IMG/VR virus record: IMGVR_UViG_3300027908_000001
Location: 87,167-151,166 of that record
DNA from: a virus
Taxonomy: Duplodnaviria > Heunggongvirae > Uroviricota > Caudoviricetes
Reading direction: 5' to 3' (one strand)
DNA: 64,000 nucleotides
The notes under the pieces were generated by a model. It was not told the DNA's origin and ran no database searches. It saw only the letters and a list, made by a program, of their open reading frames with translations. Positions within the stretch are counted from its first letter, which is position 1; each line of letters starts with the position of its first letter. A program made the position numbers and the translations under genes. Shown piece after piece: positions 18,957-21,050 of the stretch.

Positions 18957-19734
18957 TTGGCACCAAATGGGCGTTGATGAATTCCATGTCGGATTTTGCC
19001 TCACGCTTGGCTCGCTCGAATTTATCTTCATCGGTCGGCGCATTCGGACAGCCGGGCCAGTGGTAGCTTTGGTCCATTGATGCCATGTCAATCGCGTACC
19101 AGCCCCGGTCGGTATGCAGCCAGTCGAGCGACCATGCACCATCGAATGCCAATGATACCTTTTCACTGAGAGCCGTCAGTTCGGCGATTTCCTCGGGCGA
19201 TTCGGTGTTGATTAAATCCAACACTTTCTCCCATCCGGTTCCGGGCTCGACATGGTTCTCGAACGCTTCCAGCGGCCAGTAAGGGTGATGGCACAGCACC
19301 TTGCCGCCCTTGATGAAGTAGCGCCGCTCCTTGGTCACTGGCATATCATGGAACGCCGTGAACGCGCGCTTGGTCGGCAGCAACTCGCGTACCGCCCAGA
19401 CGTTGTACGGCAGACCTAGCAAGCTGGCCATCTCACCGTACTCTACAATCTCCAAGACATGTTTCTCGATGTCGTCCGCGCTGGTGATGTAACAGGAATC
19501 CTTCCAGCTATGCTTCGCCGAAGTTTGTCCAGAGCGCAAGAAGCATGGTAACCCCATTTTGTTCACGGCATATTTCAGGAGCACCAGCAATTCATCAAAT
19601 CCCTTGGGTCGTTCACCTTCAAACATCATGGCGATATGACATGGGGTCGTCGCGATGAAAGTTTTTGGCACCGGCACACCGGTGGCTTGGAGCTTCGGAA
19701 ACCAGTAAGACAGACAGTTCAGGTAATGTTTCAT
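18943..19734 (-). CDS. ATP-grasp enzyme, Cdc123/R2K-like
   Basis: VPVPKT, CFLRSGQTSAKH, AVRELL, KERRYFI, WSLDWL...YAIDM. Confidence 0.7.
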   Translation of the reverse strand: MKHYLNCLSYWFPKLQATGVPVPKTFIATTPCHIAMMFEGERPKGFDELLVLLKYAVNKMGLPCFLRSGQTSAKHSWKDSCYITSADDIEKHVLEIVEYGEMASLLGLPYNVWAVRELLPTKRAFTAFHDMPVTKERRYFIKGGKVLCHHPYWPLEAFENHVEPGTGWEKVLDLINTESPEEIAELTALSEKVSLAFDGAWSLDWLHTDRGWYAIDMASMDQSYHWPGCPNAPTDEDKFERAKREAKSDMEFINAHLVPKNSC

Positions 19735-21050
19735 ACTCCTCCTCTGGGAAAATCCACAACGCTACCGAGTATCGTCTTGCTCTGGTACGTCGGCCCATTC
19801 GAGGTGATGGTGACCGGCGCGCGCAGGTAACCAGAAACCATGTCCACCAGCCCGGCCTTCTTGACCGGCTCGTAGATGGGCGTGCTACCTGCCAGCAAGG
19901 TGCCCATCCGTTCCTGTGCTTCCACGTCCGGCAACTCGGGTGGCGTGAGATGCAGGGGCGTAGCGCCGACCTGATGGCCGACCCCGACCATGCAGTCTTC
20001 CGGTAAATGGTCCATGCAACTCACCGCCAATGCGTCCACGCCGCCGACGCAATCGACTGCGTACCGGAGCAGCGCCAAGTCCAGCCAGCCGCGCCGCATC
20101 GTGCCCTGCCAGTCATTGTGCGGGTTGTATTTGTCCAACGGAAAATCCAGATGCGTCTCGGTCGGGAACGGCCCGGCTCCGTGGCGCGTCATGTAACCGC
20201 GCAACAATCCGAGCTTGGTGACCGGCCGGTTGTAGCCGCCTTCGCGTAATATCTCCTCGGCGTTGGCAAATGTCGTCGTGGCTCCTGTTGTATGGGGATG
20301 AAAACCGGCCCACTGGTCCAAAAGCACGCCCTGTGCGCCCTCGAACACTGGCGGATACGGGCCGACGAAAATGGCCTTTAGCAGTTTCTCACCGTCCACA
20401 ATGTTCAACCGCCGACTGATTTCCACCAGCTTGTTCAGCACGTAACCGAATACCTGCTCGTCATACAACGTCGAGCGTTCCTCGTCCACTTGTTGATTGG
20501 ATGGCAGACTGAGTGCCTCAACTTCCTTGAGCTTGGTATCGCGTAGCCGCACAAGTTTTTCCCGCAGTTTCTTCCAATCATTTAGGTCGGCCATGATGGG
20601 AGACTGAGCCGGGTCATTGAGCCAGTATTCGACCGTTTCCCAAATTCCCATTCCGCAACTTCCATGTTTTGCGCCCCGCCGCGAGATTTCCTTGAGCCGA
20701 TTAGCCGCACGATGGAACGGAGTGGTGAGCAGGGCACGCCGGTCAATGTAGAGCCGCTGGTACGCATCCTTCACCCCTTTCTTGAAAAGATGAACTTCTT
20801 CCAACTCCAGAGTGAGCGGATTAACCATGACGTGACGAGATAAAAAAGTGATGACTCCGGGTATGAATGTCCCGGAGCCGAACTGGCTGAACGTGTGATG
20901 CCTACCATCGGGAAGTACCACATTGTGGGCGGCCTGCCCTCCGCCGTTGTACCGAATTACGGCTGTGCTCGGCAGGACGCGGCACAGTAAATCAACGCAT
21001 GAGCCTTTGCCCTCGTCGCCCCAGCCAAGTCCCGCCGTAATCACAGCCAT
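19731..21050 (-). CDS. divergent adenylosuccinate-synthetase-like protein
   Basis: GWGDEGKG, YNGGGQAAHN, VFEGAQG, RGYMTRHGAGPFPTE, RRGWLD, SNGPT; start MAVI with SD GAGGT. Confidence 0.92.
   Translation of the reverse strand: MAVITAGLGWGDEGKGSCVDLLCRVLPSTAVIRYNGGGQAAHNVVLPDGRHHTFSQFGSGTFIPGVITFLSRHVMVNPLTLELEEVHLFKKGVKDAYQRLYIDRRALLTTPFHRAANRLKEISRRGAKHGSCGMGIWETVEYWLNDPAQSPIMADLNDWKKLREKLVRLRDTKLKEVEALSLPSNQQVDEERSTLYDEQVFGYVLNKLVEISRRLNIVDGEKLLKAIFVGPYPPVFEGAQGVLLDQWAGFHPHTTGATTTFANAEEILREGGYNRPVTKLGLLRGYMTRHGAGPFPTETHLDFPLDKYNPHNDWQGTMRRGWLDLALLRYAVDCVGGVDALAVSCMDHLPEDCMVGVGHQVGATPLHLTPPELPDVEAQERMGTLLAGSTPIYEPVKKAGLVDMVSGYLRAPVTITSNGPTYQSKTILGSVVDFPRGGV

Follow-up and report, generated by a model that had tools for sequence, protein, structure and literature searches.

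Adenylosuccinate synthetase (PurA, EC 6.3.4.4) is, to our knowledge, a textbook enzyme with one well-studied functional offshoot, PurZ, which led to the Z-genomes. Here we present the analysis of a phage gene whose product, P0001, is neither of the two. The gene lies on the minus strand of a 64,000-nucleotide window (positions 87,167 to 151,166 of IMG/VR record IMGVR_UViG_3300027908_000001), part of the complete 197,395-bp genome, with direct terminal repeats, of an uncultured tailed phage, hereafter the source phage. The original prediction, made from the sequence alone, had described a PurA paralog with rebuilt substrate loops; rather than a lone paralog, the gene proved to be a typical member of a very large family in which PurA-like proteins are coupled to von Willebrand factor A (vWA) proteins and, in most of the loci studied, to a predicted pseudokinase with a J-domain. 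We found no description of this enzyme family or of its module in the literature.

P0001 shares with PurA (structures 1ADE and 1CG0-1CG4; mouse 1IWE) the long-form fold, the P-loop, the catalytic Asp, Lys and His residues, Gln224, Asp333 and the Ser414-Gly-Pro motif, and the first half-reaction, a GTP (guanosine triphosphate)-dependent O-phosphorylation, is probably the same in both. Unlike PurA, the P0001 family has a dismantled aspartate loop, a rebuilt loop for the phosphate of inosine monophosphate (IMP) and a vWA partner, and unlike the housekeeping enzyme it occurs as a second copy beside canonical PurA or in genomes without PurB. PurZ and PurZ0 of the Z-genome phages (6FM1, 7ODX, 7VF6) resemble P0001 in being phage-borne members of the same superfamily with altered substrate specificity. 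In contrast to P0001, however, they have the short, archaeal-type form, carry Ser in place of Asp13, keep the aspartate loop and travel with DatZ and MazZ.

The arrangement of the module recalls the TerY-P triad and the MoxR-vWA pairs, in which a vWA protein with a metal ion-dependent adhesion site (MIDAS) is likewise tied genetically to a kinase-fold protein and a protein that uses nucleoside triphosphates, with a patchy distribution in bacteria and phages. It differs from them in having no PP2C phosphatase, a kinase without the catalytic Asp, and an NTPase of the PurA fold instead of an AAA+ protein. A third point of comparison is the phage pathways NARP1 (Adps and Namat), NARP2 and NARP3, which reconstitute nicotinamide adenine dinucleotide (NAD). 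Like the module, they are found in large phages, and NAD-salvage genes are neighbours of relatives of P0001. Furthermore, the chemistry of Adps and Namat is formally parallel to that proposed below, in that an oxygen is activated by a phosphoryl group and then displaced by a ring nitrogen. The module enzyme is nevertheless unrelated, in sequence and in fold, to Adps, Namat, Nampt, NMNAT and NadR, and the source phage already has an Adps/Namat-like pair elsewhere in its genome, whereas the other module-bearing phages have none.

Separation from PurA and PurZ and the substrate pocket

By profile and by predicted fold, P0001 is a member of the adenylosuccinate-synthetase superfamily. It scores 183 bits against PF00709 (cut-off 27), and a sequence search matches E. 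coli PurA structures at E ~4e-27 over residues 3-375; the same kind of search returned no PurZ structure at E 1e-3. The scores against the PurA equivalog models fall well below their cut-offs (134.9 bits versus 395.55 for TIGR00184 and 138.1 bits versus 402 for NF002223), and the PurZ model NF038379 gives 17.8 bits versus a cut-off of 300. An AlphaFold2 model was built on 28 relatives and is confident (predicted local distance difference test, pLDDT, 92.9; predicted template modelling score, pTM, 0.92). Foldseek aligns it with more than 20 PDB structures of long-form PurA, some of them ligand-bound, at template modelling (TM) scores of 0.75-0.82 and 24-25% identity, so that the PurA fold is recovered at a TM score of about 0.8. 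The corresponding values are 0.58-0.62 for short archaeal PurA and 0.55-0.61 for PurZ and PurZ0 (including 7ODX, 6FM1 and 6TNH). In a maximum-likelihood tree, made by a quick search and with one row in a wrong reading frame ("Archangium_PurA") disregarded, the PurA proteins of E. coli, Micromonospora and Ktedonobacterales cluster with phiVC8 PurZ and are set apart from all P0001 relatives by a long branch (Shimodaira-Hasegawa-like approximate likelihood ratio test, 99).

The genomic setting points the same way. Canonical PurA (590-613 bits to PF00709) and the module form (195-231 bits) coexist in Micromonospora, in Archangium and in a Ktedonobacterales metagenome-assembled genome (MAG). Two small genomes, a 1.3-Mb Saccharimonadales genome and one of 1.1 Mb, carry the module form alone and lack PurB, with the reservation that the assemblies may be incomplete. 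Neither PurB nor a MazG-family gene (MazG or MazZ) was found in the source phage. In a genome that has no lyase, a product of the adenylosuccinate type would be a dead end. P0001 is thus neither housekeeping PurA nor PurZ, since canonical PurA stands beside its relatives in free-living hosts and the two small genomes are without PurB; the original prediction had reached the same view, and the model scores (138 bits versus 402; 17.8 versus 300) bear it out.

Active-site residues were mapped on an alignment of 345 family sequences (P0001 and 344 relatives) together with E. coli PurA and phiVC8 PurZ, and are given below in E. coli numbering except where P0001 is named. In the E. coli enzyme Thr300, Thr301 and Arg305 belong to the L-aspartate loop, and Arg143 reaches the IMP phosphate from the other subunit. 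The motifs on which the original prediction was built (GDEGKG, the His of AAHN, HGSCGMGIWE, EGAQG, GPFPTE, NPHNDWQGTMRR and SCMD) are all in place (Table 1). Its distinction between a kept catalytic core (Asp, His, EGAQG, GPFPTE) and rebuilt loops (Thr128, Thr129 and Arg131; Thr300, Thr301, Arg303 and Arg305; Lys331) holds in the alignment to E. coli PurA, as does its statement that PurZ has Ser for the catalytic Asp, which is seen in the GSTGKG motif of phiVC8 PurZ and as S23 in S-2L PurZ (PMC8342488).

Across the family, the P-loop Gly12-Asp13-x-Gly15-Lys16-Gly17 is retained in 96-99% of the sequences, Glu221-Gly-Ala-Gln224-Gly in 95-100% and Ser414-x-Gly-Pro in 86-98% (Ser414 itself in 95%). 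His41, Arg272 and Asp333 are invariant (100% each), and Thr239 is kept in 93%. The GTP-binding residues (P-loop, guanine-specific Asp and SxGP) and the phosphotransfer residues Asp13, Lys16, His41 and Gln224 are thus intact. The substitutions are nearly as uniform. They comprise Asn38 to Gln (98%), Ile126 to His (96%), Thr128 to Ser (93%), Thr129 to Cys (99%), Pro135 to Glu (95%) and Val273 to His (100%), with Arg131 replaced by Met, Leu or Val (Met in P0001), Lys331 by His, Cys or Asn, and no conserved counterpart of Arg143. In the aspartate loop Thr300 is deleted, Thr301 is Trp (95%), Gly302 is Gln (98%), Arg303 is Gly, Arg or Gln, and Arg305 is Phe (87%; Met in P0001). Arg303 of PurA touches both the ribose O2' of IMP and aspartate (PMC8342488). 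Six family signature residues are present in P0001 as H129, C132, E138, H290, W314 and Q315, corresponding to positions His126, Cys129, Glu135, His273, Trp301 and Gln302. The cationic, Thr-rich dicarboxylate pocket has accordingly been swapped for a neutral, aromatic one lined by Trp, Gln, Phe or Met and an invariant His, and the acceptor ribose-phosphate site is re-lined with His, Cys and His. At the aspartate loop of the P0001 model pLDDT falls to 70-77; because it is low there, the model suggests that this loop is mobile.

These residues also divide the functional part of the original prediction. A nucleophile different from aspartate is likely because the aspartate pocket is gone, and the GTP and phosphotransfer residues are intact, so this half of the claim stands; its 6-oxopurine acceptor and its polymer- or protein-linked substrate are conjectural. 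For the acceptor the residues themselves are mixed: Gln224, Asp13 and Thr239 are kept, whereas Thr129 is Cys, Val273 is His and Arg143 is not conserved.

P0001 has private features as well. Its P-loop reads GDEGKG where most relatives have GDAGKG. Trp137 of P0001, at the Gly134 position, is Gly in 97% of the relatives and Trp in three of the 345 sequences; Gly256 of P0001 (20271-20291), at the position usually occupied by Trp240, is Trp in 91% of relatives. In each of the three family members that carry Trp134, position 240 is occupied by Gly or Ala. The pair Trp137/Gly256 resembles a compensated exchange in which a single pocket residue has moved between two neighbouring loops.

The vWA and J-pseudokinase module and its neighbourhoods

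The family is large. When 1.84 billion cluster representatives (clusters at 50% identity) were searched exhaustively and without a profile, P0001 matched 9,588 clusters at E<=1e-3 and, of these, 2,817 at E<=1e-30; the top 150 are 39-52% identical to it. A word-indexed search agrees, with members in Actinomadura, Plantactinospora, Roseiflexaceae, Anaerolineales and Kerfeldbacteria. Among isolated phages, relatives occur in 238 records, 201 of which are Bxz1-type (cluster C) mycobacteriophages with about 40% identity, annotated as "PurA-like adenylosuccinate synthetase" or "2-aminooxy adenylosuccinate synthetase". At least 586 loci came to light in a scan that took a single genome from each species. 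The distribution is patchy: of 301 genomes sampled evenly from the class to which Micromonospora belongs, 13 have a member. Two PurA-family proteins, P0274 and P0275, are split by inteins. The C-terminal extension of the long relative P0271 was considered as an ATP-grasp or kinase domain and rejected, the only match being a chance one, KDRRYFI.

Gene order was compared in 87 loci: mycobacteriophage I3, six IMG/VR phage contigs and 80 bacterial loci. In 83 of them the immediate upstream neighbour of the PurA-like gene is a vWA gene, and in 75 a pseudokinase gene precedes the vWA gene. Four loci gave no vWA match; in three of these the PurA-like gene sits near the end of its contig, and one (L029) is fully flanked. 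The order and strand of the kinase-like, vWA and PurA-like genes are shared by phages, Actinomycetota, Chloroflexota, Myxococcota, the candidate phyla radiation (CPR, Patescibacteria), Acidobacteriota and a gammaproteobacterial MAG, and distant relatives in Rhizobium and Vibrio phages retain the pair of vWA and PurA-like genes. Natural fusions of the vWA and PurA-like proteins exist in metagenomic sequences (P0270, 776 residues; P0272, 936 residues), which argues for the vWA protein as a physical partner of the PurA-like enzyme, the two forming a complex.

The vWA protein of the source phage carries an N-terminal Met-Gly and the MIDAS motif DVTGS (21829-21843), and its AlphaFold2 model (pLDDT 89) matches integrin I-like and vWA folds. 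In the vWA family (83 sequences, many from Micromonospora) the Met-Gly start is found in 79 and an Arg-Leu end in 63, the source phage protein ending in ERV; this start and end are possible docking or substrate motifs. The kinase-fold protein begins with a J-like domain at its N terminus, whose signature is HPD in most relatives and HED in the source phage (23014-23022). It retains the beta3 Lys and the alphaC Glu, and its HRD site reads HGAVLPEN in the source phage (22456-22479), the catalytic Asp being gone. Because His-Gly-Ala stands for His-Arg-Asp, the protein is predicted to be a pseudokinase in most members.

The module is not a catalogued defence system: PADLOC has no model matching the vWA or PurA-like proteins and returned only generic kinase and ATPase matches. 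Additionally, a TROVE/Ro60-type vWA protein is encoded about 2-3 kb downstream of the module in two seemingly unrelated phages, an IMG/VR phage (L003:11076-12608) and Vibrio phage phiKT1024 (L107:7388-8896).

In 55 of the 87 loci the module is immediately adjoined by a gene for NrtR (Nudix and winged helix-turn-helix domains), an ADP-ribose-responsive repressor of NAD genes (PMC2330246). The NrtR-bearing loci comprise all the Actinomycetota loci, one Terriglobales genome, four CPR genomes (in divergent orientation) and a 398-kb jumbo phage. A palindrome, CTCA-N3-TGAG, occurs 60 times in the 873 kb of those loci, and 55 of the 60 copies lie within 260 bp upstream of nrtR; in the nrtR promoter region it is often in tandem (L012-L090). 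In the CPR loci the spacer between the divergent genes holds GTGT-N7-9-ACAC palindromes instead (L049, for instance, has TTAGTGTCAACTTGACACTAA), and one CPR palindrome is perfect over 21 bp and includes the published GT-N7-AC core. In the jumbo phage, genes for nadE, a pncA-like isochorismatase, nrtR, the J-pseudokinase, the vWA protein and the PurA-like protein follow one another on one strand (L006:2258-9116), so that the module is accompanied in this phage by a phage-encoded regulator that senses ADP-ribose. Genes for Nampt-like, Nudix and ADP-ribosylglycohydrolase proteins are found in a Saccharibacteria locus, and the vWA and PurA-like pair has an NMNAT/Nudix gene near it in the Rhizobium phage and a NADAR gene in the Vibrio phage. 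Unnamed NrtR-regulated genes, nrtX-nrtY, were reported in Streptomyces, Frankia, Kineococcus, Proteus and Hahella by Rodionov et al. 2008.

The source phage has candidate NAD genes as well. Outside the window, adjacent genes for a PRPS-like protein (269 residues, phrog_619) and a Nampt-like protein (484 residues, phrog_448, PF04095 and NAMPT_N) lie on the minus strand with ends that overlap by a few bases (L091:3616-5867). This pair has the architecture of NARP1 (Adps and Namat), a pathway that rebuilds NAD+. The source phage was found to have neither an NMNAT gene nor a Nudix gene.

The operon in the source phage

The gene for P0001 is the fifth in a run of six minus-strand genes between 24589 and 18943, which encode, in order of transcription, an SMC-like ATPase, a 52-residue peptide, the J-like pseudokinase, the vWA protein, the PurA-like protein and an R2K-clade ATP-grasp protein (Table 1). 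The genes overlap or are closely spaced, and no terminator-like site was found on the minus strand between 24589 and 18943. The longest open frame of the PurA-like gene runs from 19731 to 21149, the stretch beyond 21050 overlapping the upstream vWA gene. The ATG at 21050 is likely to be the start codon, because it lies 7 nt past the vWA TGA and behind a Shine-Dalgarno-like GAGG, and relatives start there too.

Table 1. Coordinates of the PurA-like gene, its active-site motifs and its operon in the window; percentages refer to the 345 aligned family sequences
Feature	Position	Strand	Match or conservation
PurA-like gene P0001, 439 residues and stop	19731-21050	minus	PF00709 E 1e-53; phrog_1211 E 3e-69
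P-loop GDEGKG, catalytic Asp12 (E. coli Asp13) and Lys15	21003-21020	minus	Asp and Lys each 99%
His42 of AAHN (E. coli His41)	20925-20927	minus	100%
Rebuilt IMP-phosphate loop HGSCGMGIWE (E. coli IGTTGRGIGP)	20637-20666	minus	His126 96%, Cys129 99%, Glu135 95%
EGAQG, Gln240 (E. coli Gln224)	20328-20342	minus	100%
TRHGAGPFPTE, His290 at the E. coli Val273 position	20157-20189	minus	His 100%
Rebuilt aspartate loop NPHNDWQGTMRR	20091-20126	minus	Thr300 deleted; Thr301 to Trp, Gly302 to Gln, Arg303 to Gly, Arg305 to Met
SCMD (E. coli TKLD), guanine-specific Asp347 kept, Lys lost	20010-20021	minus	Asp 100%; Lys position His, Cys or Asn
vWA/MIDAS partner, 336 residues	21058-22068	minus	phrog_2971 E 8e-80
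J-like domain and predicted pseudokinase, 353 residues	22081-23142	minus	Pkinase E 1.4e-7; phrog_3043 E 2.6e-44
R2K-clade ATP-grasp gene	18943-19734	minus	PF14243 E 8e-7
Hydrophobic peptide, 52 residues	23139-23297	minus	
SMC/AAA_23-like ATPase	23294-24589	minus	

The ATG of the R2K gene overlaps the stop codon of the PurA-like gene (ATGA). The R2K protein was considered as a fourth subunit of the module and rejected: neither it nor the SMC-like ATPase nor the 52-residue peptide has homologues beside the module in the other 87 loci, and the closest relative of the R2K protein, 50% identical, is found in a complete phage without a PurA-like gene. The SMC-like ATPase and the 52-residue peptide are operon mates local to the source phage.

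A strong sigma-70-like promoter (TTGACT-17-TATACT with TG) lies at 18918-18946, right past the R2K stop codon, which its -35 hexamer overlaps; it precedes the next gene (18594-18872) and marks the 3' boundary of the module operon. The operon region is flanked by a Cas4-domain (PD-(D/E)XK) exonuclease-like gene at 15654-17099 (phrog_1990, E 2e-17) and by a gene for a 256-residue protein with a weak MmcB-like match (E 0.005) at 24638-25408.

Proposed function and its alternatives

Because of the coupling to vWA protein and pseudokinase, and of NrtR in bacteria, we place the family in NAD and ADP-ribose biology rather than in purine or DNA-base synthesis. From the sequence comparisons we propose, with about even confidence, that P0001 would be the catalytic subunit of a J-pseudokinase/vWA/PurA-like module and would act as a GTP-dependent ligase joining a non-aspartate nucleophile to a nucleotide related to NAD or ADP-ribose. 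In such a reaction an acceptor resembling a nucleotide would be bound near Gln240 and Asp12 of P0001 and phosphorylated by GTP on an oxygen, which would become a leaving group, and a non-acidic nitrogen nucleophile would then displace the phosphate. The nucleophile could be ammonia, a neutral amine such as a pyridine, or an amine offered by the vWA partner. The acceptor may come from NAD/ADP-ribose metabolism, as the gene context in bacteria and other phages suggests. The J-domain pseudokinase probably serves as a subunit that regulates the others or recruits chaperones, and the phage module would probably keep the NAD or adenylate pool usable in infection, for example against NAD-depleting host defences.

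Several points weigh against this ligase proposal. For every member of the family turnover itself, like the acceptor and the nucleophile, is a prediction. The contacts to the 5'-phosphate of IMP survive only in part, which leaves room for an acceptor other than a nucleoside monophosphate. For a plain metabolic enzyme, obligate vWA and J-domain partners are odd; they suit a protein-directed or chaperone-like role no less well. The window has no NrtR gene, no NrtR-type operator and no NAD gene beside the module, and the NARP1-like pair lies about 100 kb away from it. A Nampt-like gene is absent from five other module-bearing phage records (two of them complete), for which reason we rejected co-occurrence with NARP1 as a rule. 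Also, NrtR aside, the Chloroflexota, the Myxococcota and several CPR loci have neighbours unrelated to NAD.

An unlikely reading, though one to be taken seriously, is a protein-directed machine in which the PurA-like subunit would use GTP to attach a nucleotide to a protein or to remodel it, the target being the N-terminal glycine of the vWA protein or a host protein held at the MIDAS, with the J-domain recruiting host Hsp70. The vWA partner is obligate and sometimes fused, with a Met-Gly start in 79 and an Arg-Leu end in 63 of 83 sequences, the HPD of the J-domain is kept in most relatives, MIDAS domains classically bind an acidic side chain, and the Asp pocket of the enzyme itself is lost. 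Moreover, the R2K gene is translationally coupled here, and R2K proteins are predicted protein-peptide ligases (PMC4431377). Against this, R2K is not a conserved partner, both putative docking motifs are degenerate in the source phage (HED in the J-motif, ERV in the vWA tail), and the conservation of Gln224 and Thr239 favours a small nucleotide ligand. It is quite improbable that the protein is a GTPase switch or chaperone without ligase chemistry, acting with the vWA protein as MoxR-type ATPases do to assemble or activate some other protein. Pairs of an NTPase and a vWA protein are an established chaperone arrangement, found as MoxR-vWA pairs in jumbo phages (PMC7824862), and the module does include a J-domain protein; yet Gln224 (100%), Asp13 (99%) and His41 (100%), which PurA requires solely for its substrate chemistry, are kept across the family, and a new pocket (His126, Cys129, His273, Trp301, Gln302), conserved to the same degree, has been built at the substrate site.

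The two purine readings are less probable still. That P0001 is a true but divergent adenylosuccinate synthetase, using IMP, Asp and GTP to boost adenosine monophosphate synthesis in the phage, is very improbable: the full-length PurA fold, the full set of catalytic residues and the database name "adenylosuccinate synthase" for relatives would all agree with it, whereas the deletion of Thr300, the replacement of Thr301, Arg303, Arg305 and Arg131, the score of 138 bits versus 402, the canonical PurA beside it in free-living hosts and the lack of PurB in two small genomes and in the phage do not. It is scarcely credible that the enzyme is of the PurZ type and makes the 2-aminoadenine precursor for a Z-genome, as would be concluded from PHROG 1211 and RefSeq, which name relatives "2-aminooxy adenylosuccinate synthetase". 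P0001 has the catalytic Asp at the position of the PurZ Ser, scores 17.8 bits versus 300 with the PurZ model and matches no PurZ structure at E 1e-3, and its TM scores to PurZ lie below the 0.8 to PurA. The aspartate loop that PurZ needs is gone, and the phage is without MazG or MazZ.

Within the proposed GTP-dependent ligase, a more specific and decidedly unlikely version is that the PurA-like and vWA proteins form a one-step NAD-rebuilding or NAD-repair ligase. In that case GTP would phosphorylate an oxygen on some nucleotide derived from ADP-ribose, such as the 1''-OH in ADP-ribose itself or, in a deaminated adenylate moiety, the 6-oxo group, and the pyridine nitrogen of nicotinamide or nicotinate, or ammonia, would displace the phosphate. 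If true, this would be a fourth, mechanistically new route for restoring NAD+ in cells and phages when ADP-ribose accumulates, and the jumbo-phage array of nadE, pncA, nrtR and the module would constitute a complete deamidated route from nicotinamide and ADP-ribose to NAD+.

For the superfamily, the PurA-like proteins represent a second and much larger offshoot than PurZ, with thousands of clusters in at least six bacterial phyla, the ultrasmall bacteria of the CPR and large phages in their hundreds, among them the Bxz1-type mycobacteriophages, and with an intact catalytic engine, a new substrate pocket and two obligate protein partners. The database labels "adenylosuccinate synthase" and "PurZ-like" mislead metabolic reconstructions and predictions of Z-genomes. 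The wiring to NrtR and to NAD salvage ties the family to the contest between cell and phage over NAD+.

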